This document shows positions 1 to 33,331 of a stretch of 33,331 nucleotides of DNA, piece after piece. The notes under the pieces are model-generated. The model made no database searches and had not been told where the DNA came from. It saw only the letters and a program-made list of their open reading frames with translations. The DNA is from a virus (taxonomy: Duplodnaviria; Heunggongvirae; Uroviricota; Caudoviricetes). A program made the position numbers and the translations under genes. The stretch is from IMG/VR virus record IMGVR_UViG_2703718780_000026; one strand, 5' to 3'. Numbering within the stretch: position 1 is the first letter of the stretch; every line of letters begins with the position of its first letter.

Positions 1-981
1 TTATAACGTCACTCCGCCTTTTAGAGGATTCAGCGCGACGGCATTTTGCAGGTAGTCAGGCGCAAGGTGCGCATAGGCCATCGTCTGCTGAATGCTCGCA
101 TGTCCCAGAATCTGTTGCAGTGCGATTATATTGCCCCCATTCATCATGAAATGGCTTGCGAATGTATGCCGCAGGATGTGGGTTGCCTGATTGGGTGGTA
201 TATCTGGCTTCACTCTGCGTAAAATCCCGCAAAACTTCTCATAATCAACTTTGAATAATTTAGCGCTGGCCTCCTCTTTAACTTTTTTCTCCAGTTCCTC
301 AGAAATCGGCACGGTTCGCTTTTTACCGTTTTTGGTTTTCAGGAAGGTAACCCTGCAATTTGTAATCTGTGCTGGTTTTAGCGTGGCAACTTCCGTCCAT
401 CTTCCTCCAGTGCTCAGACATAAAAGTGCGACAAGTAAGTCATCACCAGCCAAAACATTTAACAGTTTTTCGATTTCTGCTTTTTCCAGGAACGTCATTT
501 CAGGGTTGGCCTCCGCCAGTGGCGGCAGTCCGTGAATTGGGTGTTGCCCGGAAAATTCATCCAATTGAATTAATTTTGTGAACATGCCGGATAATCGGTA
601 CATGTCACGGTTTATCGTTGCGGCACTGATACCATCACGTAGTCGCATGGAACGATAATCCATCAAAGCTCTTTTGCTCATCCGGCTCACTGGTATATCA
701 CCTATGCCGCTGATGGTTTTGAGCAGATGATTAAACTCTTTTGTTCCATGCTCGTGGTTTTGCCCGTGATATTTCCACCAGATGTCCAGCAACTCACTCA
801 AAGTTCGGCGATCTGCTCGCTGACCTGCCCATTCTTTCTGGCTGGCGTAGGCGATTGTGTATCGCTCAAATGCTACAGCCTCAGCTTTTCTTTCAAATTT
901 CCTGCGGATGCGTTTTCCGTCGCGACCGCGAGGTCTAATGTCCACTTCATAGCGTCCATCATCGAGCTTCTTAATTGACAT
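1..981 (-). CDS. int: Tyrosine integrase (P2 Int-like)
   Basis: Minus-strand ORF 1-1011; ATG at 981 gives MSIKKLDDGRYEVD..., which matches the P2 Int N-terminus as I recall it, with a GAGGG RBS-like sequence upstream. C-terminal R...HxxR...Y-type region (ATHILRHTFASHF...AYAHL). Sits at the prophage end next to the C repressor. The tracker's start at 1011 is an alternative. Confidence 0.88.
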   Translation of the reverse strand: MSIKKLDDGRYEVDIRPRGRDGKRIRRKFERKAEAVAFERYTIAYASQKEWAGQRADRRTLSELLDIWWKYHGQNHEHGTKEFNHLLKTISGIGDIPVSRMSKRALMDYRSMRLRDGISAATINRDMYRLSGMFTKLIQLDEFSGQHPIHGLPPLAEANPEMTFLEKAEIEKLLNVLAGDDLLVALLCLSTGGRWTEVATLKPAQITNCRVTFLKTKNGKKRTVPISEELEKKVKEEASAKLFKVDYEKFCGILRRVKPDIPPNQATHILRHTFASHFMMNGGNIIALQQILGHASIQQTMAYAHLAPDYLQNAVALNPLKGGVTL

Positions 982-1050
982 AAGAAAGCCCTCTGACGCT
1001 GTATTCACCATCTTGGTAACAAATGGTGAAAATGTAATGTTTATAGAGTG

Positions 1051-1344
1051 TTAACCAGTCTGTTTTTCGGAGTGGTCTGATTCTGTTGGTTTTTGCCCAA
1101 TGTGTGCGAGAGCCGGCGCGATCTGACCAGCTTGTGGTGACGTATCACCAGTCATTAACCAGAGCGTATATTTTTTAAATAAAGGCGTATTTGTGACTCG
1201 CATAACGATGCTGAGACCAGGGTCTTTATGCCCACTTTCGTAATTTTTGACTGTTCCTAGAGCTATCCCGCTAATTTCGCTGAATTTCGCCTGTGTTAAG
1301 CCTTCTGCTTTCCTAATCGCTTTCAGTTTTTCGAATGTCTGCAT
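1051..1344 (-). CDS. C: Immunity repressor C (P2 C-like, HTH)
   Basis: 97-aa ORF divergent from cox. N-terminal HTH-like segment (LTQAKFSEISGIALGTVKNYESG) and C-terminal GQIAPALAH motif as in P2 C (from memory). Position between int and cox. Confidence 0.8.
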   Translation of the reverse strand: MQTFEKLKAIRKAEGLTQAKFSEISGIALGTVKNYESGHKDPGLSIVMRVTNTPLFKKYTLWLMTGDTSPQAGQIAPALAHIGQKPTESDHSEKQTG

Positions 1345-1373
1345 TTGACAGTAACCTATTGGTGACTTATATT
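1345..1373 (+). promoter_or_regulatory. Candidate early promoter Pe (sigma70-like: TTGACA, 17-nt spacer, TATATT) reading into cox
   Basis: TTGACA at 1345-1350 and TATATT at 1368-1373, read directly. Lies in the C/cox divergent intergenic region where P2 has Pe. Confidence 0.55.
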
Positions 1374-1400
1374 CCCGTCAAAAGGTTGTGTATTGGTGAC
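1357..1400. promoter_or_regulatory. Direct repeats TATTGGTGAC x2 (34 bp apart) flanking the Pe -10; candidate C-repressor operator half-sites
   Basis: Identical 10-mers at 1357-1366 and 1391-1400. In P2 the C operator is a pair of direct repeats flanking the -10 of Pe (established knowledge); assignment here is by analogy. Confidence 0.45.
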
Positions 1401-1422
1401 CTTTTGAGTGTGTTAGCCAGTC

Positions 1423-1454
1423 CCTAGAAAGGACAGGGGCGACCTAGAAGGGAC
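1423..1454. promoter_or_regulatory. Direct repeats CCTAGAA(A/G)GGAC x2 (20 bp apart); candidate Cox/Pc regulatory sites
   Basis: 12-mers at 1423-1434 and 1443-1454 differ at one position. Located between Pe and the cox start codon. Confidence 0.35.
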
Positions 1455-1496
1455 TGGATCTAATAAGGGTAACACGAAAGCAAAAAGGGCTAATCA

Positions 1497-1769
1497 ATGG
1501 AAGTCAATGACTATGTGATTCAGTACCCGATTGATGCGGTACATACGGTTAAGTTTGCAGAGTTACTTGGTAAGCCAGAAACGGCTGTAGTCAAGATGGT
1601 AAAAGAGAATAAATTGCCAGTTATTGAGCTTCGTGATCCAAGTAAGCCGAACGCTCGTGTCGGTGAGAAGTGGGTTTTCATTCCAGAGTTTAATCGCGCT
1701 GTACGAGAGGCGTTTTATAACCGACCAGTTGAACAGCGTGATGCATGGCTTTTGTGGATGGGGTTGTGA
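1497..1769 (+). CDS. cox: Cox-like excisionase / Pc repressor
   Basis: 90-aa ORF, first gene of the rightward early operon, divergent from C. Size and position as for P2 Cox (91 aa). Confidence 0.75.
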   Translation: MEVNDYVIQYPIDAVHTVKFAELLGKPETAVVKMVKENKLPVIELRDPSKPNARVGEKWVFIPEFNRAVREAFYNRPVEQRDAWLLWMGL

Positions 1770-1771
1770 TT

Positions 1772-1942
1772 ATGAGTGAACCGCGTTGTATTGCTCAGTT
1801 ACTGCGTAACGAAAGCCCCAGGGCGATTGACTTCACCATCACCCACGGTAAGGGGCGTAAGGGAATCATTATCCGCACCAAAAAACAGAGTCCGGTAAAA
1901 AAGGCTCTGACCTTTCTGAAAAGCCGGAGGGTCTGGAAATGA
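1772..1942 (+). CDS. Small hypothetical early protein
   Basis: ATG at 1772 (MSEPRC...) just after the cox stop; its stop overlaps the B start (ATGA). No recognisable motif. Confidence 0.45.
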   Translation: MSEPRCIAQLLRNESPRAIDFTITHGKGRKGIIIRTKKQSPVKKALTFLKSRRVWK

Positions 1943-2439
1943 CAGTGATGACGCTCAATCTCGTTGAAAAACAGCCAGCAGCTATGCGCCGGATAATTGG
2001 TAAGCATCTGGCCGTCCCTCGCTGGCAGGAGACATGCGATTATTATAATCAGATGATGGAACGCGAACGGCTAACGGTTTGCTTTCATGCGCAGTTAAAA
2101 CAACGTCACGCAACGATGCGTTTTGAAGAAATGAACGACGTCGAACGTGAACGGCTGGTTTGTGCAATTGATGAATTGCGTGGGGCATTCTCAAAACGCC
2201 GTCAGGTTGGCGCAAGTGAGTATGCATATATTAGTTTTTTAACAGTCAGTCAGCGTCGTACTTTATTTATGCACGCACGACTGACAGAAAAAGAATTCAA
2301 CCAGCCATACTGGCGAATTAATGAAGAATCATGTTACTGGCGTGATGCTTTATTCCGTGCATTACGTGAATTATTCAGCCTGTTTGAGTACGCACCGACA
2401 ATTCTGACGTCGGTAAAACCAGAGCAATATCTGCATTAA
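1939..2439 (+). CDS. B: Replication protein B (P2 gpB-like)
   Basis: 166 aa, the same length as P2 B. Position after cox. Confidence 0.8.
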   Translation: MTVMTLNLVEKQPAAMRRIIGKHLAVPRWQETCDYYNQMMERERLTVCFHAQLKQRHATMRFEEMNDVERERLVCAIDELRGAFSKRRQVGASEYAYISFLTVSQRRTLFMHARLTEKEFNQPYWRINEESCYWRDALFRALRELFSLFEYAPTILTSVKPEQYLH

Positions 2440-2502
2440 GTAATTAACCAGAGTTTTTAACGCACTTAATCGTGCGGGGCTTCTTTTTGCCTGGAGAAAG
2501 TC

Positions 2503-2727
2503 ATGCATACAGTTTCTGAAAATCAGTGCGGTAAATTCGCATTACTGCTGCAACAGGCCAGAACCGAAGCACAGGCCGACGCTGCGACGCGCTTTTCTTC
2601 TCATCTTGACGCCATGATTCGCCACATCACAAAGGCGGAGTTATCCCGCGTGGAGATAGTCGAGCTGCTCAGTCAGGAGTCGGAAAAATTTCACAACATC
2701 GGATTGTCTCGCGGGGAGGTGCTTTGA
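2503..2727 (+). CDS. Hypothetical early protein
   Basis: 74-aa ORF in the B-A interval of the early operon; stop overlaps the next start (TGATG). Confidence 0.55.
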
Positions 2728-3029
2728 TGTCCTGTTCTCATTCAGTTGTATTACTGAACAATGCCTTAAAAATCGCCGTTATGAAAAATGGCGATTTGTC
2801 TCTTATTCAACTTGGTCTTGATAAAGAAAAACGCGAAATAACTGAATCTGTTATCGCGATTTATCAGAGTGAATTAAACCTCCTGTCTGATGTGGTCAAT
2901 TTACTTGTTAAACGCGCTGTATTTCACAAGCAAATTTCCTCCGTGGATGAACTGACGAAATTAACGACAGAAATCGCCAGCTATTGCGCTGATGAATTTA
3001 AAAAACTGAACGACAAAAGGAACTGGTAA
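2724..3029 (+). CDS. Hypothetical early protein
   Basis: 101-aa ORF, translationally coupled to its neighbours. Confidence 0.55.
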
Positions 3030-3253
3030 TGCCGGACAACGTAGATTTTATTCAGGAACAACAGGCTGAATTACTGGAGCGCCAGATTAACGCGGCAAGG
3101 GTAAAACATTGTGGTGCTTCTGCGCTGGTTTGCGAAGAGTGTGACGCGCCAATACCTGCTGCCCGTCGTGCAGCTTATCCGTCAGCCACGCGTTGTGTTT
3201 CCTGCCAGTCAGTCTTTGAAGCAAAAAACAAGCATTACCGGAGAATGGCATGA
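3029..3253 (+). CDS. TraR/DksA-like C4 zinc-finger protein
   Basis: 74 aa with CxxC-N17-CxxC (CEECDAPIPAARRAAYPSATRCVSCQ). P2 has a TraR-like small ORF at this position (from memory). Confidence 0.65.
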   Translation: MPDNVDFIQEQQAELLERQINAARVKHCGASALVCEECDAPIPAARRAAYPSATRCVSCQSVFEAKNKHYRRMA

Positions 3254-3525
3254 GTATTCGTATCGAAATTGGCGAACGTTATGTCGTTACCAGTGACAGC
3301 TTTCAGTTTATTCTCCACGAGAAAAAGAGAGCGGAAAGCGGTAAAAACGCCGGTCAGGAATGGCTGGCGGTGGTTGGTTATTACCCGAAATTAAGCCAGC
3401 TCGTTTCCGGCCTGATGCATCACGATATTCTGACCGGAAGCGCAAAGTCTTTTGCTGATTTAAACGCGCAGGTTGAGCAACTCAGCAAGCGTTGTTCAGA
3501 GGCTTTTGGCTCATATGGCCGTTAA
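3250..3525 (+). CDS. Hypothetical early protein
   Basis: 91-aa ORF immediately upstream of A and overlapping its start. Confidence 0.55.
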   Translation: MSIRIEIGERYVVTSDSFQFILHEKKRAESGKNAGQEWLAVVGYYPKLSQLVSGLMHHDILTGSAKSFADLNAQVEQLSKRCSEAFGSYGR

Positions 3526-5800
3526 AGCCTCCGGGCGTTTTGTCCCTCCGTCAGCATTTGCCGCAGGCACCGGTAAGGCGTTTACCGGTGCTTATGCATG
3601 GAACGCGCCACGCGAGGCTGTCGGGCGCGAAAGACCCCTTACACGTGACGAGATGCGTCAGGTGCAAGGTGTTTTATCCACGATTAACCGCCTGCCTTAC
3701 TTTTTGCGCTCGCTGTTTACTTCACGCTATGACTACATCCGGCGCAATAAAAGCCCGGTGCACGGGTTTTATTTCCTTACATCCACTTTTCAGCGTCGTT
3801 TATGGCCGCGCATTGAGCGTGTGAATCAGCGCCATGAAATGAACACCGACGCGTCGTTGCTGTTTCTGGCAGAGCGTGACCATTATGCGCGCCTGCCTGG
3901 AATGAATGACAAGGAGCTGAAAAAGTTTGCCGCCCGTATCTCATCGCAGCTTTTCATGATGTATGAGGAACTCTGCGATGCATGGGTTGATGCTCATGGC
4001 GAAAAAGAATCGCTGTTTACGGATGAGGCGCAGACTCACCTGTATGGTCATGTTGCTGGCGCTGCACGTGCTTTCAATATTTCCCCGCTCTACTGGAAAA
4101 AATACCGTAAAGGGCAGATGACCACGAGGCAGGCATATTCTGCCATTGCCCGCCTGTTTAACGATGAGTGGTGGACTCATCAGCTTAAAGGCCAGCGTAT
4201 GCGCTGGCATGAGGCGTTACTGATTGCTGTCGGGGAGGTCAATAAAGACCGTTCTCCTTATGCCAGTAAACATGCCATTCGTGATGTGCGTGCGCGCCGC
4301 CAGGCAAATCTGGAATTTCTTAAATCGTGTGACCTTGAAAACAAGGAAACCGGCGAGCGCATCGACCTTATCAGTAAGGTGATGGGCAGTATTTCTAATC
4401 CAGAAATTCGCCGGATGGAGCTGATGAACACCATCGCCGGTATTGAGCGTTACGCCGCCGCAGAGGGTGATGTGGGGATGTTTATCACGCTGACCGCGCC
4501 GTCAAAGTATCACCCGACACGTCAGGTCAGAAAAGGCGAAAGTAAAACCGTCCAGCTAAATCACGGCTGGAACGATGAGGCATTTAATCCAAAGGATGCG
4601 CAGCGTTATCTCTGCCGTATCTGGAGCCTGATGCGCACGGCATTCAAGGATAATGATTTACAGGCCTACGGTTTGCGTGTTGTTGAACCACACCACGACG
4701 GAACGCCGCACTGGCATATGATGCTTTTTTGTAATCCACGCCAGCGTAACCAGATTATTGAAATCATGCGTCGCTATGCGCTCAAAGAGGATGGCGACGA
4801 AAGAGGAGCCGCGCGAAACCGTTTTCAGGCAAAACACCTTAACCGGGGCGGTGCTGCGGGATATATCGCGAAATACATCTCAAAAAACATCGACGGCTAT
4901 GCACTGGATGGTCAGCTCGATAATGATACCGGTAGGCTGCTGAAAGACACTGCAGCGGCTGTTACCGCATGGGCGTCTACGTGGCGCATTCCGCAATTTA
5001 AAACGGTTGGCCTGCCGACAATGGGGGCTTACCGTGAGCTACGCAAATTGCCTCGCGGCGTCAGCATTGCTGATGAGTTTGACGAACGCGTCGAGGCTGC
5101 ACGCGCCGCCGCAGACAGTGGTGATTTTGCGCTGTATATCAGCGCGCAGGGCGGGGCAAATGTCCCGCGCGATTGTCAGACTGTCAGGGTCGCCCGTAGC
5201 CCGTCGGATGACGTTAACGAGTACGAGGAAGAAGTCGAGAGAGTGGTCGGCATTTACGCGCCGCATCTCGGCGCGCGTCATATTCATATCACCAGAACGA
5301 CGGACTGGCGCATTGTGCCGAAAGTTCCGGTCGTTGAGCCTTTGACTTTAAAAAGCGGCATCGCCGCGCCTCGGAGTCCTGTCAATAACTGTGGAAAGCT
5401 CACCGGTAGTGATGCTTCGTTACCGGCTCCCACACCTTCTGAGCACGCTGCAGCAGTGCTAAATCTGGTTGATGACGGTGTTATCGAATGGAATGACCCA
5501 GAGGTCGTGAGGGCGCTCAGGGGAGCATTAAAACACGGTCTGAAAACACCAAATCGTCAGCAAAGAAACGGAAGTCCGTTAAAAACACATGAAATTGAAC
5601 CGTCGGCCAGACTGACCCGGTCGGAACGAATGCAAATCACCCGTATCCGCGTTGACCTTGCTCAGAACGGTATCAGGCCTCAGCGATGGGAGCTTGAGGC
5701 GCTGGCGCGTGGCGCGACCGTAAATTATGACGGGAAAAAATTCACGTATCCGGTCGCTGATGAGTGGCCGGGATTCTCAACAGTAATGGAGTGGACATAA
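3515..5800 (+). CDS. A: Replication initiation endonuclease A (rolling-circle, HUH-type)
   Basis: ATG at 3515 gives 761 aa, the same as P2 gpA. HUH-like motif PHWHMMLF and paired active-site tyrosines YIAKYISK, as in the phiX174 A / P2 A family. Confidence 0.9.
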   Translation: MAVKASGRFVPPSAFAAGTGKAFTGAYAWNAPREAVGRERPLTRDEMRQVQGVLSTINRLPYFLRSLFTSRYDYIRRNKSPVHGFYFLTSTFQRRLWPRIERVNQRHEMNTDASLLFLAERDHYARLPGMNDKELKKFAARISSQLFMMYEELCDAWVDAHGEKESLFTDEAQTHLYGHVAGAARAFNISPLYWKKYRKGQMTTRQAYSAIARLFNDEWWTHQLKGQRMRWHEALLIAVGEVNKDRSPYASKHAIRDVRARRQANLEFLKSCDLENKETGERIDLISKVMGSISNPEIRRMELMNTIAGIERYAAAEGDVGMFITLTAPSKYHPTRQVRKGESKTVQLNHGWNDEAFNPKDAQRYLCRIWSLMRTAFKDNDLQAYGLRVVEPHHDGTPHWHMMLFCNPRQRNQIIEIMRRYALKEDGDERGAARNRFQAKHLNRGGAAGYIAKYISKNIDGYALDGQLDNDTGRLLKDTAAAVTAWASTWRIPQFKTVGLPTMGAYRELRKLPRGVSIADEFDERVEAARAAADSGDFALYISAQGGANVPRDCQTVRVARSPSDDVNEYEEEVERVVGIYAPHLGARHIHITRTTDWRIVPKVPVVEPLTLKSGIAAPRSPVNNCGKLTGSDASLPAPTPSEHAAAVLNLVDDGVIEWNDPEVVRALRGALKHGLKTPNRQQRNGSPLKTHEIEPSARLTRSERMQITRIRVDLAQNGIRPQRWELEALARGATVNYDGKKFTYPVADEWPGFSTVMEWT

Positions 5801-6252
5801 TGGCAAAAATTCACGAGGTAAAGCTGCACGCAAAATATTTCGACCTTGTACTGGAAGGAAAGAAACGCGCAGAGTTTCGGAAAAATGACCGTAATTATGA
5901 GCGCGGGGACACGTTGATTTTGCATGAATGGGTGCAGGGTGTGTTTACGGGGCGCAAGGTTGAAGCCCGGATAACAGATGTTACTGACCTGTCAGACTGG
6001 CTGGAAGATTATGTCTTGCTAAGTATTGAGCTGCTTAATACGGGCGCATATAAGATTGTGAACTGGAAAGAACTTAGTGAACGTGGTTTGGTATTCAGAA
6101 TTAATCATGAAATTATGCATCAGCTTGGCCTTGCTGTTATGTATGAACCAGAGACAGGGATGTCTGGTGGTGCAATGGTTGCCACGGATGGGATATGGAA
6201 TTATTCAGATGAACAGATGGAGCATGCAAAGCAAAACGGGTGGCTTGGATAA
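5800..6252 (+). CDS. ASCH/DUF3850-like protein (tentative)
   Basis: ATG at 5800 overlaps the A stop (TAATG). N-terminus MAKIHEVKLHAKYFDLVLEGKKRAEFRKNDRNYERGDTLILHEW resembles the DUF3850/ASCH consensus as I remember it; needs an HMM check. Confidence 0.5.
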   Translation: MAKIHEVKLHAKYFDLVLEGKKRAEFRKNDRNYERGDTLILHEWVQGVFTGRKVEARITDVTDLSDWLEDYVLLSIELLNTGAYKIVNWKELSERGLVFRINHEIMHQLGLAVMYEPETGMSGGAMVATDGIWNYSDEQMEHAKQNGWLG

Positions 6253-6458
6253 TGCACAGAATACCAGGCGAGATACCGCACCATAAAACTAAAAATATCA
6301 AGCTGATGGCCATTGTTCAGCGTTTACAGCGGATTATGGTCAACGAAAATCTGACGCCCGATGAGCTGGTCGGGTGTGCCGAAATAGTCCGGGATAATTA
6401 CGGGCGGTTTAATCATATCGGTCAATCAAGAGTTACGCCACCACCACGCAGACGATAG
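6252..6458 (+). CDS. Small hypothetical protein
   Basis: ATG at 6252 overlaps the upstream stop (TAATG), suggesting translational coupling. 68 aa, no motif recognised. Confidence 0.4.
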   Translation: MHRIPGEIPHHKTKNIKLMAIVQRLQRIMVNENLTPDELVGCAEIVRDNYGRFNHIGQSRVTPPPRRR

Positions 6459-6763
6459 AGAACGCCGCCAGTCGTGAAACTTGTTTTCAGGGCTGGCGGG
6501 GTTGAACAACGAGCGAAGCGAGGCGTTAGTTATGTAAAGTTAAAGTCATTTAAAACAGTACATTAGTGGAAAGGATGTTGAGAGTATTCGGTTACGAGAG
6601 GGAATGGATGTATTTACAGAAATTGTTGGATTAATTGTAGTAAAGCTAGGCTAGGATAAGGCCTTAGGGCTGGATGTGGGGAGCATTCTTGTTGTTTGCT
6701 AAAACGCTCGAGATTTTTGAAGGATACAGTTATACTCTGTCGGAGGATGAATCGGAGACTAAA

Positions 6764-7801
6764 ATGGCGGTAAAAGTTGTTGATCTTTTTTGTGGTGCTG
6801 GCGGGCTTACTCATGGCTTAAAGCAAGCCGGATTAGATGTAGTCGCTGGTATTGATATAGAGAGTGCATGCCGGGTTGCTTATGAAATTAATAACAGTGC
6901 GCTTTTTATTGAAAAAGATATTTCTCTGGTGACCAAAGACGAGCTTAACGATCTTTTTGAAGGTGCGCAGGTAAGGGTGTTGGCTGGTTGTGCGCCGTGC
7001 CAACCTTTTTCAAGGTATACGCAAGGGCGCGATAAGAAAAATGATAAAAAGTGGCCTCTTCTTTATGAATTTGAACGTTTAATTCGAGGGGTTAATCCAG
7101 AGATCGTTACAATGGAAAATGTACCTGATGTAACGAAGCATTCTGTTTATAGTGACTTCTATAATAGTTTAGAGGCATTGGGTTATCATGTCTGGGCCGG
7201 AAAGGTTGAATGTGTAGATTATGGTGTTCCGCAAAATAGAGTTAGGCATGTATTATTGGCATCTAAATTTGCGCCGCTTTCATTTGTAAAACCAAAAGTA
7301 GAAAAGGCGGTGACGGTAAAAGAATGCATTGGCGGACTTCCTCCATTAAAGGCTGGTCAAACGGATCCTGTTGATCCTTTACATAAAGCAAGTAAATTAA
7401 GTGATATAAATCTAAAACGTATTGCTTGCTCTAAACCAGGAGGGACATGGCGAGACTGGCCAGTAGAGTTGATTGCATCATGCCACATAAAGAAAAGTGG
7501 GCAAGGTTATGCTAGTGTATATGGACGTATGGATTGGGATAAACCAAGTCCTACAATTACTACGCTATGTTATGGTTTTGGAAATGGCAGATTTGGTCAT
7601 CCCGAGCAAAATCGTGCAATTTCTCTGAGAGAGGCTGCATTGTTACAAACGTTTCCAAAGGATTACGTTTTTACTGCACCCAATGAGAAAGTATCTATAA
7701 AGAATGTTGGTAGGATGATTGGTAATGCTGTACCGGTAAAACTAGGTGAGGTTATAGGTGAGTCAATTATAACTCACCTAAAAGAGCACAATATAGTTTA
7801 A
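6764..7801 (+). CDS. DNA (cytosine-5) methyltransferase
   Basis: ATG at 6764 with GGAG RBS 6 nt upstream. C5-MTase motifs read in order: I DLFCGAGG, IV PCQPFS, VI ENV, VIII QNRVR, X GNAV. 345 aa. Confidence 0.9.
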   Translation: MAVKVVDLFCGAGGLTHGLKQAGLDVVAGIDIESACRVAYEINNSALFIEKDISLVTKDELNDLFEGAQVRVLAGCAPCQPFSRYTQGRDKKNDKKWPLLYEFERLIRGVNPEIVTMENVPDVTKHSVYSDFYNSLEALGYHVWAGKVECVDYGVPQNRVRHVLLASKFAPLSFVKPKVEKAVTVKECIGGLPPLKAGQTDPVDPLHKASKLSDINLKRIACSKPGGTWRDWPVELIASCHIKKSGQGYASVYGRMDWDKPSPTITTLCYGFGNGRFGHPEQNRAISLREAALLQTFPKDYVFTAPNEKVSIKNVGRMIGNAVPVKLGEVIGESIITHLKEHNIV

Positions 7802-8529
7802 GCCTGTAGTCTTGATGATCGTATGTATAAGCGATCATCAAGGTATTTTTGTATGTTTTCTAGTATTTCTTCTAGGTAATGGAAAACTTCATTTTTAAGA
7901 AGTTCAAGGTTGTCAATAGACGTTTCTTGACCCTTGTTTAAAAAGGATTCTGAACCATGCGCCAATGCATTTCTTGCTTTTTTTATGTTTACTAAATTTC
8001 CACCATTATGAGTTTTTGAACGATCTGTTTGAGAGGAAAAACCATAGATACTAGCAACATCCCTAATTTTCTGTGCGTCAACATTTCCAGAAAATAGGGG
8101 GTTTTTATCTGCTTGAACTTGTTTTTTGTGTTCCTCTAGCCATTTTTTTAGAACTAGTTTTGCTATATCACCTTGTGAAAAATCCATGTCACTCACCATA
8201 TGATGGTCTAATTTTTTTAAGGCAAGCTTTGTTAAGCTTTCGCAAATTTTATCGACACAAAGATCATCACACGAATTAAGTTCATTATGTATATCTTCAA
8301 TAGCATTAGATATAGTGGCTTCAATTAAGTTATATAATATAATAAACGCATTGGCTTTTAGGATATGCGTCATTTCGATATCAATTTCGCGGTGTTTACA
8401 TTCGCCTGCTATGCGATCTTTGTACGAGAATGTTGGTCTCTCATCAATAATGAATTTAACAAAATCAAAATATTTTTCTATATCTTCTTTTCTTTCAGAA
8501 AATAAAATTTTGCTGTTCATGATGACCAC
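7798..8529 (-). CDS. Hypothetical protein with C-terminal HEPN-like R-N-x3-H motif
   Basis: 243 aa from a GTG at 8529 (RBS GAGGAG 10 nt upstream), or 240 aa from the ATG at 8520. KKARNALAHG matches the HEPN Rx4-6H signature. Its stop codon overlaps the MTase stop (7798-7801 shared, convergent). Confidence 0.6.
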   Translation of the reverse strand: MVIMNSKILFSERKEDIEKYFDFVKFIIDERPTFSYKDRIAGECKHREIDIEMTHILKANAFIILYNLIEATISNAIEDIHNELNSCDDLCVDKICESLTKLALKKLDHHMVSDMDFSQGDIAKLVLKKWLEEHKKQVQADKNPLFSGNVDAQKIRDVASIYGFSSQTDRSKTHNGGNLVNIKKARNALAHGSESFLNKGQETSIDNLELLKNEVFHYLEEILENIQKYLDDRLYIRSSRLQA

Positions 8530-8535
8530 GGATAG

Positions 8536-9660
8536 TTACTCCTCACTATCATCTAGAACAGTATCTTCGGTCTGCACACCTAAAAGTTTGTCTCTTACAT
8601 ATTCAATACGTGCTTTTACTTTAGGTTTTGAATTTGATGCATCAGATCTTGTATGTTTAATAAACTCTTCTGAGTTTAACCATTCCTCTACCGGTGTTGG
8701 TATTATGTTAGAGTCAGTTTTTAAGGCCAAAGTGGAACCGACAGCTAACGCTTCAAAGCGAATTCTTGGTACAGTGTTTGCCGTTGCATTCTTTCTGAAA
8801 CCATAGGGGAAATATGTTTTGACAAATTCACACATATCTTGAAATTGTGCAGTTAGTTTTTCTTCTTGCTCAGGACTAAATGACTCATTGCGTTGGTCAA
8901 GATATTGGGTTAAGAAAGTATCAACACTTTTTTCAAAGTTAAGATAGTTATCACAATAGGCAAAATATCTAAGAACCAATTCTGGATATTCTCCACGACT
9001 GATCCTAGCATCGTTTAGAGGGCATATTTCCCTAAACAATGGAAACTCTGATAGTCTATTAACAACATCAAGAAAAGGCCCATCATTACTGCCCTGTCGT
9101 TGCTCCATTGTCGTGAGTTTTATTCCACCTGTATTCAATCGATCGAAAATCTCCCTTCTTGCTTCTTCATCACATAATTCAGTGAGTTCAATCATTCGAA
9201 TAGTTTTTCTATCGAATCTAAGCTTACGTGCAGGTGTGAAGTCAGAGTATTTGAATCCGTTGGCTGAAGTTAGCTTTTTTAATCCAGTAAGGGTAAATTT
9301 ATCATTTAGGAAATGATAAAGTGTTCTAATCCTCTGGCTACCATCAACGATTTCCAATCGCCCATCGTCATTTCCGATATCGGCGACAAATACATATGGG
9401 ATAGGAATATTTAGCAAAAGAGATTCAATGAATCTTGATTTTTGAACATTGCTCCAAACAAATTCCCTTTGATAATCAGGTATGTATAGTTCTGCTTGGT
9501 CGGTTTCTAATCCTTTCTGAAATTTGTCAACAATGACACTTACAGGAAACTCTCTGATTTGGTGATCCGTTATTTTTTGCATGGATTTGATCTGGTTATC
9601 CAGGTCAACTTTATCTTCTTCTGTGATCACTTGTTCAGGTTGTCTTGGGACTCTTGCCAT
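8536..9660 (-). CDS. DUF262 (ParB/Srx-like) domain protein, standalone (no DUF1524/HNH domain)
   Basis: ATG at 9660 with AGGAG RBS; 374 aa. Motifs IPDYQREFVW and DGSQRIRTL (the DGQQR-type signature) plus C-terminal FDRLNTGGIKLT. First gene of a two-gene operon, 6-nt gap to the downstream gene. Confidence 0.75.
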   Translation of the reverse strand: MARVPRQPEQVITEEDKVDLDNQIKSMQKITDHQIREFPVSVIVDKFQKGLETDQAELYIPDYQREFVWSNVQKSRFIESLLLNIPIPYVFVADIGNDDGRLEIVDGSQRIRTLYHFLNDKFTLTGLKKLTSANGFKYSDFTPARKLRFDRKTIRMIELTELCDEEARREIFDRLNTGGIKLTTMEQRQGSNDGPFLDVVNRLSEFPLFREICPLNDARISRGEYPELVLRYFAYCDNYLNFEKSVDTFLTQYLDQRNESFSPEQEEKLTAQFQDMCEFVKTYFPYGFRKNATANTVPRIRFEALAVGSTLALKTDSNIIPTPVEEWLNSEEFIKHTRSDASNSKPKVKARIEYVRDKLLGVQTEDTVLDDSEE

Positions 9661-9681
9661 TTGTTTTCTCCTTATGCTTAT

Positions 9682-9706
9682 TTGCAATAAGTTGCATTTG
9701 TTTGCA
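9682..9706 (-). promoter_or_regulatory. Three TTGCA motifs at 10-bp phasing in the leader of the DUF262 operon (candidate operator)
   Basis: TTGCA at 9682-9686, 9692-9696 and 9702-9706 on the + strand (TGCAA x3 on the coding strand), between the predicted promoter and the start codon. Confidence 0.3.
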
Positions 9707-9723
9707 TGCGTAGTTTTATACTG

Positions 9724-9752
9724 ATTTAATCCCACAAGTCCTTTACATGCAA
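9724..9752 (-). promoter_or_regulatory. Candidate sigma70 promoter for the DUF262/HEPN-like operon (TTGCAT, 17 nt, TTAAAT on the minus strand)
   Basis: Reverse complement of 9747-9752 is TTGCAT; reverse complement of 9724-9729 is TTAAAT; spacer 17 nt. About 60 nt upstream of the ATG at 9660. Confidence 0.35.
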
Positions 9753-9802
9753 GGGTTAGAGGCTTAAATGCACCTGCATTAAAACCGCCCCACGAAGCGG
9801 GC

Positions 9803-9821
9803 GGGCGAGGCGGGGAAAGCA
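9803..9821. other. cos cohesive-end site (P2/P4-type 19-mer GGCGAGGCGGGGAAAGCAC)
   Basis: The 19-mer matches the P2/P4 cohesive-end sequence as I recall it, and the following sequence (CTGCGCGCTG.CGGTGGTGCTGATT...TTTTTTCAGCGTCT) resembles the P4/P2 left end. Located between the cargo and Q, as expected for an integrated P2. Confidence 0.7.
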
Positions 9822-9964
9822 CTGCGCGCTGGCGGTGGTGCTGATTTTATTTTTTCAGCGTCTGAGCGCGTCGTGATAGCGTTTAGATTGTGCGCCGGGG
9901 CGTTGGTTTGTCTGCGGGCTGTTTTGCGCGGTGGTGAGCGTGTGAGGGCGTGATGACGGGGTGT

Positions 9965-9991: not shown

Positions 9992-11026
9992 TCAGCCGTT
10001 GTCAGTGTCCAGTGAGTAGTTTTTAAAGCGGATGACCTCCTGACCGAGCCAGCCGTTTATCTCGCGGATCCTGTCCTGTAACGGGATAAGCTCATTGCGG
10101 ACAAAGACCTTTGCCACTTTCTCAATATCACCCAGCGACCCGACGTTCTCCGGCTTGCCACCCATCAACTGAAAGGGGATGCGGTGTGCGTCCAGCAGGT
10201 CAGCGGCGCTGGCTTTTTTGATATTAAAAAAATCGTCCTTCGTCGCCACTTCACTGAGCGGGATAATTTTAATGCCGTCGGCTTTCCCCTGCGGGGCATA
10301 GAGAAACAGATTTTTAAAGTTATTGCGGCCTTTTGACTTAACCATGTTTTCGCGGAGCATTTCGATATCGTTGCGATCCTGCACGGCATCGGTGACGTAC
10401 ATGATGTATCCGGCATGTGCGCCATTTTCGTAATACTTGCGGCGGAACAGTGTGGCCGACTCATTCAGCCAGGCAGAGTTAAGGGCGCTGAGATATTCCG
10501 GCAGGCCGTACAGCTCCTGATTAATATCCGGCTCCAGCAGGTGAAACACGGAACCGGGCGCGAAGGCTGTCGGCTCGTTGAAGGACGGCACCCACCAGTA
10601 AACATCCTCTTCCACACCACGGCGGGTATATTTTGCCGGTGAGGTTTCCAGTCTGATGACCTTACCGGTGGTGCTGTAACGCTTTTCCAGAAACGCATTA
10701 CCGAACACCAGAAAATCCAGCACAAAGCGGCTGAAATCCTGCTGGGAAAGCCACGGATGCGGGATAAATGTCGAGGCCAGAATATTACGTTTGACGTAAA
10801 TCGGGGAGCTGTGATGCACGGCAGCACGCAGGCTTTTTGCCAGACCGGTAAAGCTGACCGGTGGCTCATACCATCTGCCGTTACTGATGCACTCGACGTA
10901 ATCCAGAATGTCACGGCGGTCGAGTACCGGCACCGGCTCACCAAAGGTGAATGCCTCCATTTTCGGGGCGCTGGCGGTCATTTTTTTTGCCGCAGGTTGC
11001 GGTGTTTTCCCTTTTTTCTTGCTCAT
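9992..11026 (-). CDS. Q: Portal protein (P2 gpQ-like)
   Basis: 344 aa, the same as P2 Q. Adjacent to cos and transcribed toward it; start overlaps the P stop. Confidence 0.88.
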   Translation of the reverse strand: MSKKKGKTPQPAAKKMTASAPKMEAFTFGEPVPVLDRRDILDYVECISNGRWYEPPVSFTGLAKSLRAAVHHSSPIYVKRNILASTFIPHPWLSQQDFSRFVLDFLVFGNAFLEKRYSTTGKVIRLETSPAKYTRRGVEEDVYWWVPSFNEPTAFAPGSVFHLLEPDINQELYGLPEYLSALNSAWLNESATLFRRKYYENGAHAGYIMYVTDAVQDRNDIEMLRENMVKSKGRNNFKNLFLYAPQGKADGIKIIPLSEVATKDDFFNIKKASAADLLDAHRIPFQLMGGKPENVGSLGDIEKVAKVFVRNELIPLQDRIREINGWLGQEVIRFKNYSLDTDNG

Positions 11027-23917: not shown

Positions 23918-24445
23918 ATGCAGCATTTGATAAATATAACGGCAGGTAATCCAAAAACGGTTGAACAATATCAATTGACAAAGGACTTTGATGTTGTCTG
24001 GTTTTTTTCAGAAGATGGTAAGAACTGGTACGAAGAACAAAAGTATTTTGCTGATGACACGATAAAAATAGCGTACGACAAAGATAATATTATCCGCTAT
24101 GTGGAAAAGGATGTGACAGCTATCAGACCAGATGGATTAAGTGTTGTTGAAGTGCCGGATATTACTGCTAATCGACGGGCGGACATTTCAGGGAACTGGA
24201 TGTTTAAGGATGGTACAGTGATTAAACGAATTTATACGGCAGAGGAATTGCAGCAGCAGGCAGAAAATCGGAAAGCCAGACTTCTTGCAGATGCTGAATC
24301 CGTGATTTTGCCGCTGGAGCGCGCGGTCAGACTGAACATGGCAACAGATGAGGAGCGTAGCCGACTGGAAGCATGGGAACGCTACAGCGTTCTGGTCAGT
24401 CGTGTGGATCCTGCAAATCCTGAATGGCCGGAAATGCCGCAATAA
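23918..24445 (+). CDS. G: Tail fibre assembly chaperone G
   Basis: 175 aa, the same as P2 G; immediately follows H. Confidence 0.8.
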
Positions 24446-30730: not shown

Positions 30731-31893
30731 TGCTGGATGCGCTGACATTTGATGCAGGCAGTACGCTGACGCCGGATTACATGCTGATGCTCGACAGCAG
30801 GGATATTACCGGCAATATCAGCGACCGTCTGATGAGCATGACCCTGACGGATAACCGGGGCTTTGAGGCTGACCAGCTTGATATTGAACTGAACGATGCC
30901 GACGGGCAGGTCGGGCTGCCGGTTCGTGGCGCTGTCCTGACGGTGTATATCGGCTGGAAAGGTTTTGCCCTGGTATGCAAAGGGAAATTTACCGTTGATG
31001 AGGTTGAACACCGGGGCGCACCGGATGTGGTCACCATCCGCGCCCGGAGTGCAGATTTTCGCGGGACGCTCAATTCCCGCCGTGAAGGCTCCTGGCATGA
31101 CACCACGCTCGGTGCGATTGTTGAGGCGATAGCCTCCCGTAACAGGCTGGAAGCCAGTGTCGCTCCGTCACTGGCCGGAATTAAAATCCCGCACATCGAC
31201 CAGTCGCAGGAGTCTGATGCAAAATTCCTGACCCGCCTTGCTGAACGCAACGGCGGTGAGGTGTCGGTAAAAATGGGAAAACTGTTGTTTCTCAAAGCGG
31301 GGCAGGGGGTGACGGCCAGCGGTAAAAAAGTCCCGCAGGTCACCATAACCCGCAGCGACGGCGACCGCCATCATTTTGCGATTGCTGACCGTGGAGCCTA
31401 TACCGGCGTAACGGCAAAGTGGTTACACACCAAAGACCCGAAGCCGCAAAAGCAGAAGGTAAAACTGAAACGCAAAAAGAAAGAGAAACACCTGCGCGCA
31501 CTGGAGCACCCGAAAGCGAAACCAGTCACGCAGAAGAAAGCGCCAAAAGTACCGGAAGCGCGCGAAGGTGAATACATGGCCGGTGAGGCTGACAACGTTT
31601 TTGCACTGACCACGGTATATGCCACGAAAGCACAGGCCATGCGCGCCGCTCAGGCGAAGTGGGATAAACTGCAACGGGGTGTGGCGGAGTTCTCCATCAG
31701 CCTGGCTACCGGTCGGGCAGATATTTACACGGAAACACCGGTTAAAGTGTCAGGCTTTAAGCGCGTCATAGACGAGCAGGACTGGACAATCACTAAGGTG
31801 ACACATTTTCTGAATAATAGCGGCTTCACGACGTCCTTAGAGCTTGAGGTCAGGCTTTCTGATGTGGAGTACGAAACCGAAGATGATGAGTGA
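30730..31893 (+). CDS. D: Tail protein D (late control D)
   Basis: 387 aa, the same as P2 D; overlaps the U stop. Confidence 0.85.
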   Translation: MLDALTFDAGSTLTPDYMLMLDSRDITGNISDRLMSMTLTDNRGFEADQLDIELNDADGQVGLPVRGAVLTVYIGWKGFALVCKGKFTVDEVEHRGAPDVVTIRARSADFRGTLNSRREGSWHDTTLGAIVEAIASRNRLEASVAPSLAGIKIPHIDQSQESDAKFLTRLAERNGGEVSVKMGKLLFLKAGQGVTASGKKVPQVTITRSDGDRHHFAIADRGAYTGVTAKWLHTKDPKPQKQKVKLKRKKKEKHLRALEHPKAKPVTQKKAPKVPEAREGEYMAGEADNVFALTTVYATKAQAMRAAQAKWDKLQRGVAEFSISLATGRADIYTETPVKVSGFKRVIDEQDWTITKVTHFLNNSGFTTSLELEVRLSDVEYETEDDE

Positions 31894-31974
31894 TGTTTTT
31901 ATTTTATCTATTTGTTTTATAAGGATAAATTAACTAAAATGGCACTATCAACAAAACCGGAAGAGGTGCTCGCG

Positions 31975-32193
31975 ATGTTTCATTGTCCTTTATGCCAGCA
32001 TGCCGCACATGCGCGTACAAGCCGCTATATCACTGACACGACAAAAGAGCGTTATCACCAGTGTCAGAACGTGAATTGCAGCGCCACGTTCATCACTTAT
32101 GAGTCGGTACAGCGATACATCGTGAAGCCGGGAGAAGTCCACGCCGTAAGGCCGCACCCGTTACCATCAGGACAGCAAATTATGTGGATGTGA
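31975..32193 (+). CDS. ogr: Late-gene transcription activator Ogr (C4 zinc finger)
   Basis: ATG at 31975 gives 72 aa (MFHCPLCQHAAHARTSRYITDTTKERYHQCQNVNC...), which matches P2 Ogr as I recall it, with CxxC...CxxxxC. Last phage gene before the host junction. Confidence 0.85.
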   Translation: MFHCPLCQHAAHARTSRYITDTTKERYHQCQNVNCSATFITYESVQRYIVKPGEVHAVRPHPLPSGQQIMWM

Positions 32194-32203
32194 TCACAAA
32201 AAT

Positions 32204-32230
32204 AGCCCCTCAGTTGAGGGGCTTATTTAT
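32204..32230 (+). terminator. Rho-independent terminator after ogr
   Basis: Hairpin AGCCCCTC-agtt-GAGGGGCT followed by a T-rich tract (TATTTAT). Confidence 0.55.
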
Positions 32231-32235
32231 GGTCG

Positions 32236-32254
32236 ATGTGGACGCTATGTGGAC
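32236..32254. promoter_or_regulatory. Tandem direct repeats ATGTGGAC x2 (11-bp phasing); candidate integrase arm-type sites in attR
   Basis: ATGTGGAC at 32236-32243 and 32247-32254, between the ogr terminator and the host gene. P2-type integrases bind direct-repeat arm sites (established knowledge); the assignment here is inference. Confidence 0.3.
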
Positions 32255-32320
32255 AGTGCTTGATATAAATCCTTTTATATCATCAGGTTAGGTGCTTTTT
32301 TGTGACACCATCCCTGTCTT

Positions 32321-32347
32321 CCCCCACATGATGTGGGGGTTTTTTTT
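32321..32347 (+). terminator. Strong hairpin terminator (9-bp perfect stem CCCCCACAT-g-ATGTGGGGG plus T8), probably host-derived or att-core associated
   Basis: Read directly. It is redundant with the ogr terminator, so it probably belongs to the 3' end of the upstream host transcript duplicated or retained at the attachment site. Confidence 0.55.
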
Positions 32348-32428
32348 ATCCTCAATTTGCCTGCTGCTTAATGCATTGCAGATGATTTGCTTCCGTTATA
32401 CTAGCGTCAGTTGATAGCGGGAGTATTT

Positions 32429-33331
32429 ATGAATCAATCTTATGGACGGCTGGTCAGTCGGGCGGCGATTGCTGCGACGGCGATGGCTTCGTTGCTATTG
32501 CTGATTAAAATTTTTGCATGGTGGTATACCGGGTCGGTGAGTATTCTCGCCGCGCTGGTGGATTCGCTGGTGGATATCGGCGCGTCGTTGACGAATTTAC
32601 TGGTGGTGCGATATTCCCTGCAACCTGCCGACGATAATCACTCGTTTGGTCACGGTAAAGCAGAGTCCCTCGCGGCGCTGGCGCAAAGTATGTTTATCTC
32701 CGGTTCGGCACTATTCCTGTTTTTGACGGGTATTCAACATCTGATATCTCCAACACCGATGACAGATCCAGGCGTCGGGGTTATCGTGACAATTGTGGCG
32801 CTAATTTGTACGATTATCCTTGTCTCGTTTCAGCGTTGGGTGGTGCGCCGGACGCAAAGCCAGGCGGTGCGGGCTGATATGCTACATTACCAGTCTGATG
32901 TTATGATGAACGGCGCAATTCTGCTGGCGCTGGGGTTGTCCTGGTACGGCTGGCATCGCGCCGATGCTCTGTTTGCATTGGGAATCGGCATCTATATTTT
33001 ATATAGCGCGTTACGCATGGGATATGAGGCGGTACAGTCATTACTGGATCGCGCATTGCCTGATGAGGAACGGCAAGAAATTATTGATATCGTGACTTCC
33101 TGGCCGGGTGTTAGCGGCGCTCACGATCTTCGCACGCGGCAGTCAGGGCCGACCCGCTTTATTCAGATTCATTTGGAAATGGAAGACTCTCTGCCTTTGG
33201 TTCAGGCACATATGGTGGCGGATCAGGTAGAGCAGGCTATTTTACGGCGTTTTCCGGGATCGGATGTAATTATCCATCAGGACCCCTGTTCCGTCGTACC
33301 CAGGGAGGGTAAACGGTCTATGCTTTCATAA
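32429..33331 (+). CDS. fieF: Cation diffusion facilitator family ferrous-iron/zinc efflux transporter FieF (YiiP)
   Basis: 300 aa starting [51 protein letters not shown], which matches enterobacterial FieF as I recall it; CDF motifs and multiple TM segments. The tracker's start at 32411 is a TTG extension. Confidence 0.9.

Follow-up and report, generated by a model that had tools for sequence, protein, structure and literature searches.

Among the described systems closest to the locus analyzed here is the P2-like phage Wphi (Peduovirus Wphi), whose attB is reportedly described in a primary paper in Virology. The integration site of this phage had already been identified earlier (PMC3448106), and the genome paper for Escherichia coli W lists a prophage called 'Wphi1 (P2)' at cpxP-fieF (PMC3032704). 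In P2-type phages, the arm repeats conform to the consensus tgTGGaCa and are present as direct repeats on both sides of the core (Nilsson et al., PMC3448106). Our comparisons with P2 itself made use of features in its reference record, which include the ogr/F-operon terminator, the Int-binding P arm, the IHF site, a 27-bp core, the Cox region, and the Int-binding P′ arm.

Other phages likewise occupy the 3′ ends of RNA genes. These include 186 (tRNA-Ile), Fels-2 and SopEPhi (ssrA), and P2-like prophages at cyaR/ryeE and rybB. Such temperate phages bring along the 3′ part that they displace: their long core reproduces the 3′ end of a conserved, structured RNA gene together with the terminator hairpin, and insertion restores the gene at attL (PMC3448106, PMC3603311, PMC3032704). 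The site described below is in keeping with the known tendency of P2-like phages to integrate at the 3′ ends of sRNAs (cyaR, rybB), although its target is an sRNA processed from an mRNA 3′ UTR, whereas the phages listed above use stand-alone RNA genes. This sRNA, CpxQ, is Hfq dependent and belongs to the envelope-stress response. RNase E releases it from the cpxP mRNA, it has no promoter of its own, and the region is exceptionally conserved in enterobacteria (PMC9438474).

We analyzed a 33,331-nucleotide stretch of viral DNA (IMG/VR record IMGVR_UViG_2703718780_000026), which is called the window throughout. Compared with Wphi, the window carries a 100% identical integrase (Int), an identical 47-bp core, and a P arm that is approximately 97% identical. 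It shares the chromosomal position (cpxP-fieF) of Wphi1 from E. coli W, but its right end is not identical, and elsewhere the prophage is another mosaic, with a different cargo in the interval from gene A to the portal gene. The closest 25-kb match to the window in complete E. coli genomes reaches 97.2%, and no genome identical to the whole window was found in the collections searched. From these and the following comparisons, positions 32194-32428 are very probably the right-hand junction (attR) of a prophage that is P2-like (Peduovirus) and shares the integration type of Wphi, located in the cpxP/CpxQ end upstream of fieF. The features that are relevant to this assignment, together with the cargo genes, are as follows.

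1..981, minus strand: int, tyrosine integrase of 326 aa; window position 1 belongs to its stop codon
5764-6252: ASCH/DUF3850 protein
6674-7801: C-5 cytosine DNA methylase
7798-8529, minus strand: HEPN_MAE_28990 protein
8536-9822, minus strand: GmrSD_N/DUF262 protein (PADLOC NsnA, 3e-55; PD-T4-2_A, 7e-34)
31975..32193, plus strand: ogr, late-gene activator and last phage gene (72-aa ORF with its stop codon at 32191-32193; annotated as ogrK/ogr in matching records)
32204..32223, scoring on both strands in the scan: rho-independent terminator of ogr and the F operon, a G+C-rich hairpin with a T-rich tail (-18 kcal/mol)
32233..32260, plus strand: predicted Int arm-type binding region of the P arm, TCGATGTGGACGCTATGTGGACAGTGCT, from column-for-column alignment with the P2 feature 'Int, P arm'
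32264..32297, plus strand: predicted IHF-site homologue, aligned in register with the P2 protein_bind feature 'IHF' (24324-24357)
32284..32303, plus strand: P-arm spacer specific to the Wphi type, homologous to neither host nor P2 in alignments
32304..32350, plus strand: att core common to attP, attB, attL, and attR, GACACCATCCCTGTCTTCCCCCACATGATGTGGGGGTTTTTTTTATC, equal to CpxQ nt 15-58 plus ATC, from a four-way alignment
32304..32330, no strand assigned: strand-exchange interval, from the SNP at 32331 (phage allele at attL, host allele at attR)
32321..32347, plus strand: CpxQ/cpxP rho-independent terminator (8-bp stem, 3-nt loop, T8), with host DNA from 32331 rightwards
32351..32429, plus strand: unaltered host cpxP-fieF intergenic DNA upstream of fieF, identical to empty-site genomes
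32430..33331, plus strand: fieF, host CDF metal exporter, with its ATG at 32430 and its stop codon at the end of the window

Right prophage boundary and the shared att core

A 331-bp query across the junction region was compared with complete E. coli genomes. The fieF side of this query was matched in 5426 of 5426 genomes, and the match of empty-site genomes to the window begins only at position 32304. Wphi-type genomes in the GenBank phage collection match the window from ogr to position 32350 and no further. Among them are Wphi, L-413C and related Yersinia phages, and fiAA91-ss; besides Wphi and L-413C, approximately 40 other Peduovirus genomes extend to this point.

Four sequences were then placed in one alignment: attB of K-12, attP of Wphi, attL of E. 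coli W, and attR of the window. These share a single common block of 47 bp, GACACCATCCCTGTCTTCCCCCACATG[A/C]TGTGGGGGTTTTTTTTATC, which is present in all four and corresponds to 32304-32350. In the window, the sequence to the left of this block is that of the phage and the sequence to the right is that of the host. Therefore, the prophage ends inside the core and does not extend beyond fieF. This outcome agrees with the original prediction, which had placed the right prophage-host junction upstream of fieF and had proposed that alignment to an empty-site chromosome would define a duplicated segment; K-12 and the other empty-site genomes do so. Read from left to right, the region passes from the ogr terminator through the phage P arm, which holds the two predicted Int arm-type sites and the IHF-site homologue, and through the core into untouched host DNA.

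The gene arrangement of the prophage is P2-like, with int next to the P′ arm and ogr next to the P arm at the opposite end, on the minus and plus strands, respectively. All 326 Int residues (326/326) are identical to those of Wphi Int, and a cox gene is present in related records. The left attachment site lies outside the window, and its sequence was taken from other genomes with identical or near-identical int genes. Positions 1-1198 of the window, which include int, are identical to E. coli W, where the gene is annotated as a phage integrase. In this strain, a second core copy follows cpxP (at 2342-2388 of L003, the E. coli W sequence examined), and it is followed by a 115-bp P′ arm containing GTGTGGACACTATGTGGACAC and then by the int stop codon that corresponds to window position 1. 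The expectation that attL would be found just outside the window, with a duplicated core beside int, is thus borne out in a genome whose int is identical, where the core lies 115 bp to the left of window position 1.

Several additional observations concern the two ends of these prophages. A scan of the E. coli W attL (L003 2342-2510) revealed no minus-strand terminator-like site between the int stop codon and cpxP, and we speculate that transcripts of the lysogenic C-int operon could therefore enter CpxQ/cpxP in the antisense direction. A separate 32,330-bp record from E. coli 2020N21-246-1 (NZ_JBQJRQ010000002.1) matches only in the 45-bp core; it could represent a P2-like genome, excised or episomal, whose P arm is of another kind. 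In E. coli 4/2-1 (NZ_CP023834.1), an extra 642-bp ORF annotated as "hypothetical protein" lies between ogr and the attR core (L009 38132-38773), so the ogr-att interval is able to accept a moron. An exact scan of the viral_contigs collection for the attP junction (P arm, core, and P′ arm) gave 0 matches. Finally, a variable cargo region lies at 5764-9822, with replication gene A (3473-5800) on one side and the portal gene (9992-11026) on the other. Its contents look like a DUF262 and HEPN defence pair adjoining a methylase.

The core as the 3′ part of CpxQ

The ncRNA cpxQ is annotated in K-12 as a 58-nt RNA between cpxP and fieF. It begins with TTTTCCTTGCCATA; its remaining 44 nt are those with which the core starts, and the core is thus CpxQ nt 15-58 plus 3 nt. 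The 44-nt sequence occurs exactly in at least 108 enterobacterial species representatives (one genome per species), of which 105 have the host-type 14 nt upstream. Taxa with an exact copy include Klebsiella, Citrobacter, Enterobacter, Raoultella, Kluyvera, Salmonella arizonae and diarizonae, Erwinia, Mixta, Pantoea, and Edwardsiella hoshinae. Such exact conservation across species accounts for wide use of the attachment site. Occupied sites were found in 788 to 804 of the 5426 complete E. coli genomes (approximately 14.5%), and lysogens at the CpxQ site were also found in Yokenella, Citrobacter, Kluyvera, and Erwinia.

The copy in attR is identical to CpxQ over nt 15-58, including the terminator, but it lacks nt 1-14, which are replaced by phage DNA, and it is not located downstream of cpxP. 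It keeps the rho-independent terminator hairpin and U tail, which make up the Hfq-binding 3′ end. Judged from its sequence, this copy is a 5′-truncated duplicate and not the gene. Because the phage supplies CpxQ nt 15-58, integration rebuilds the full cpxP-CpxQ unit with its terminator at attL. The truncated copy stays at attR, where the host's original terminator follows that of ogr, and the region upstream of fieF is unchanged. Both cpxP/CpxQ and fieF thus remain intact in lysogens.

A different possibility is that the attR or attP copy is expressed as a 5′-truncated CpxQ-like sRNA that is cut from ogr or late-operon read-through and acts on Hfq or on CpxQ targets. Such read-through would suffice, since CpxQ itself arises through RNase E cleavage and has no dedicated promoter (PMC9438474), but a strong ogr terminator is present 80 bp upstream of the CpxQ copy. 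A promoter for the attR copy was considered and rejected, since our scan found no promoter-like site for it on the plus strand. The copy keeps the C-rich single-stranded stretch of CpxQ as well as the hairpin and U tail, and, as in the host processing region, the phage sequence immediately before it (GGUGC/UUUUUUGU) is rich in U. However, the first 14 nt of CpxQ have been replaced, and the published pairing with the nhaB coding region includes U7 in this 5′ part (PMC10250213). Furthermore, the need to rebuild CpxQ at attL fully explains the 47-bp identity. We therefore regard expression of the copy as a functional sRNA as improbable.

We consider quite improbable a related proposal in which the attP or attR fragment (44 of 58 nt) is transcribed, either when transcription continues beyond the ogr terminator in the lytic cycle or from attR in lysogens, and is then trimmed at the U-rich phage sequence to yield a phage-encoded CpxQ mimic or Hfq competitor. 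If true, such an RNA would alter the Cpx inner-membrane stress response. In hosts with a C in the terminator loop (see below), a single nucleotide distinguishes the two CpxQ copies. Our preferred reading remains that the attR copy is a truncated duplicate left by integration.

The identity of the hairpin was established through the K-12 annotation, as a search of 31000-33331 with Rfam models yielded no plus-strand match at threshold. A sub-threshold match to Hrs1 (RF02628) was observed on the minus strand at 32281-32347 (31.8 bits versus a gathering score of 56.4). Hrs1 is the Erwinia 'Hfq-regulated sRNA 1', and the reverse complement of its model consensus resembles CpxQ. Hrs1 may therefore be a CpxQ orthologue that was modelled on the wrong strand.

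Terminators, loop polymorphism, and strand exchange

A consensus scan of positions 31850-32500 identified three terminator-like sites versus 0.4 expected, with the ogr hairpin scoring on both strands. The ogr hairpin (32204-32223) aligns with the P2 feature described as 'rho-independent terminator for ogr transcript and F operon'. The second hairpin, CCCCCACAT-g-ATGTGGGGG, occupies 32321-32339 and is followed by T8 at 32340-32347. Folding of the 58-nt RNA that ends in T8 gave -19.7 kcal/mol and a G+C-rich stem of 8 bp, and the terminator matches the end of K-12 cpxQ save for the loop nucleotide.

The original prediction had called this second hairpin a very strong terminator and had suggested that it derives from the cpxP 3′ UTR or from a CpxQ-type RNA. 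The sequence, the terminator scan, and the RNA fold all agree on the first point, and the annotated K-12 cpxQ, which ends in the hairpin sequence directly upstream of fieF, confirms the second. The hairpin was also said to have been retained or duplicated at the att core. It does lie within the duplicated core, but the two words apply to different ends: the attR copy is retained host DNA from 32331 rightwards, and the phage duplicate is at attL. We infer that the host terminator at attR would help that of ogr to insulate fieF from late transcription of the phage.

The loop nucleotide at position 32331 is informative because it differs between sources: it is A in the window and in the phage, and C in K-12. 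All 108 species representatives (108/108) have A, which indicates that A is ancestral and that C is a derived E. coli allele. The C allele is present at the cpxP-side copy in 899 of 5422 genomes, and in 0 of 43 Wphi-type phage records. Among lysogens, a probe composed of the P arm and core found C at attR in 156 of 788. At attL, C was found in 0 of 154 lysogens with a probe composed of the core and the W-type P′ arm, which covers only lysogens with a W-like P′-arm start. We also read three lysogens directly (O157:H16 98-3133, Y5, and 4/2-1; L007, L008, and L009), and all three (3/3) have A at attL and C at attR. In this reciprocal pattern, attL bears the allele of the phage and attR that of the host, which places strand exchange within 32304-32330. 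Found in natural lysogens, the pattern is also indirect evidence for Int-mediated recombination at this sequence. A natural SNP thus confines the exchange to the first 27 bp of the core.

The same polymorphism bears on whether the hairpin at 32321-32347 could be a phage-owned terminator (for late or ogr read-through, or for convergent int transcription) whose likeness to the host is incidental, with the true junction further to the right. In phage genomes the hairpin sits between the convergent ogr and int genes, where it could stop read-through, and 0 of 43 phage records are without it. However, the annotated cpxQ of prophage-free K-12 ends in the identical 44 nt (the loop nucleotide aside), the exact 44 nt are present in 108 enterobacterial species representatives (105 with the host-type CpxQ 5′ part), and the hairpin has no T tract on the minus strand. 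Moreover, the loop nucleotide at attR tracks the host allele, which means that the loop and everything to its right are host DNA. The K-12 annotation and the host loop alleles at attR thus rule out phage ownership as an exclusive explanation, and we judge this account to be highly improbable. A terminator role for the hairpin inside the free phage genome is nevertheless compatible with the attR/CpxQ explanation that we favor.

Within the strand-exchange interval, the inverted repeat GACA-CCATCCC-TGTC (32304-32318) is a plausible core-type site pair around a 7-bp overlap, a candidate that we selected from the sequence and from the arm-to-core spacing compared with P2.

Two other ideas about the loop base were examined and set aside. 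One is that the C allele of K-12 blocks integration, as might occur if the loop were in the overlap region. The C allele is equally frequent among hosts that are lysogens (156/788, 19.8%) and non-lysogens (899/4634, 19.4%), and the loop base is therefore without effect on integration. The other is that an A in empty sites is a scar of past phage excision. This idea was rejected because A is ancestral (108/108) and because exchange to the left of the loop restores the host allele.

We also observed that, in C-allele hosts, lysogeny moves the C to the truncated attR copy, and the working CpxQ at attL gains the phage A. This situation is found in 156 of 5426 complete genomes. The terminator of the working CpxQ in these C-allele lysogens is phage derived.

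Predicted arm-type sites and the proposed recombination

The sequence ATGTGGAC occurs twice in the P arm, at 32236-32243 and 32247-32254, with GCT between the copies. The original prediction had described these as tandem 8-bp repeats and as possible Int arm-type sites. Two copies are indeed present, but they are direct repeats with an 11-bp period and are not head to tail. The suggested function fares better, as the pair aligns with the P2 protein_bind feature 'Int, P arm' (P2 24293-24320) and fits the tgTGGaCa consensus. Alignment also reveals that the ogr terminator, the two arm-type repeats, and the predicted IHF site follow one another as in P2 attP, with the same spacing. This homology to P2 stops where the cores begin, and the P2 core, AAAAAATAAGCCCGTGTAAGGGAGATT, is unrelated to the CpxQ-derived 47-mer of the window.

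Both arms have at least two direct repeats that fit tgTGGaCa: two copies of ATGTGGAC in the P arm and two copies of TGTGGACAC in the P′ arm of E. coli W. The P′ arms of seven lysogens were compared (E. coli W, E. coli Y5, Escherichia sp. MOD1-EC7003, Yokenella regensburgei, Citrobacter meridianamericanus, Kluyvera sp., and Erwinia aeris). Six of the seven, all but Erwinia, carry a TGTGGAC doublet with an 11-bp period at +83 and +94 from the core end. The P′ arm of Erwinia aeris (L092) has three TGTGGAC copies, at +84, +95, and +115. The DNA between the core end and this doublet is strongly diverged among the lysogens compared. A TGTGGAC doublet is also present in the P′ arm of P2, as in the Wphi-type lysogens. 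The distance between the arm sites of the two arms is 22 bp longer in the window type than in P2, which would amount to approximately two helical turns. The Erwinia aeris prophage uses the same CpxQ core, yet its host belongs to a different family (Erwiniaceae).

The domains of Int exhibit a corresponding pattern. Int is 49.6% identical to P2 Int over its whole length. The N-terminal part, which binds the arms, reaches 67% and the catalytic part 51.5%, whereas the core-binding part is at 34%. The difference between the N-terminal and core-binding values fits common arm sites combined with different cores.

Motif counts are less informative. TGTGGAC is not over-represented in the window (3 occurrences versus 3.8 expected), and exact 8-mer direct repeats at offsets of 8-13 are found at 9 separate places, of which the ATGTGGAC pair is the only one with an offset of 11. 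The pair is therefore no better than chance on counts, and its identification comes from homology. These counts would suit a repeat that arose by chance or a site bound by some other protein (Ogr, Cox, or the C repressor), but we deem this extremely unlikely because the pair falls exactly on the P2 Int P-arm feature (the P2 Cox feature is on the opposite arm), the motif matches the published consensus (PMC3448106), the P′-arm doublet keeps its distance from the core and its 11-bp spacing across five genera while the surrounding sequence has diverged, and the N-terminal domain of Int is far closer to that of P2 than is the core-binding part. The assignment of the ATGTGGAC pair as predicted Int arm-type sites, one helical turn apart, is thus supported, with Int binding transferred from P2 by alignment.

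To the right of the arm sites, a consensus-like IHF element, TATCATCAGGTTA, is present at 32278-32290 in the same register as TTTCAATTTATTG of P2. This element has one mismatch to the IHF consensus. The window contains 23 consensus matches versus 26 expected, which is no better than chance, and the predicted IHF site is therefore assigned from the P2 alignment. A perfect A+T-rich palindrome, TGATATAAA-TCCT-TTTATATCA (32261-32282), lies between the arm sites and the IHF consensus and overlaps the IHF-site homologue. P2 (NC_001895, approximately 24320-24341) has GAAATAAA-TCCT-TTTATTTC at the corresponding place. In this comparison of two sequences, the single difference in the left arm is offset by a complementary change in the right arm. 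The palindrome may simply be an A/T-rich part of the IHF site.

By analogy with the P2/lambda-type mechanism, the N-terminal domain of Int would bind the arm sites, and its core-binding and catalytic domains would act at the core, so that this heterobivalent enzyme would bridge the two (PMC3448106, PMC3936717). On the same model, IHF would bend the P arm, and Cox bound to the P′ arm (attL) would set directionality and direct excision.

Collectively, these results represent biology that is already known, namely the Wphi attachment site in a new mosaic prophage, and current understanding is unchanged. No link between the Wphi site and CpxQ was found in the open-access literature searched, and this connection follows directly from existing annotation. 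The value for annotation is that the right prophage boundary is fixed at the 47-bp core (32304-32350) and that both terminators upstream of fieF are explained. The long-known attachment site of Wphi is the CpxQ sRNA.
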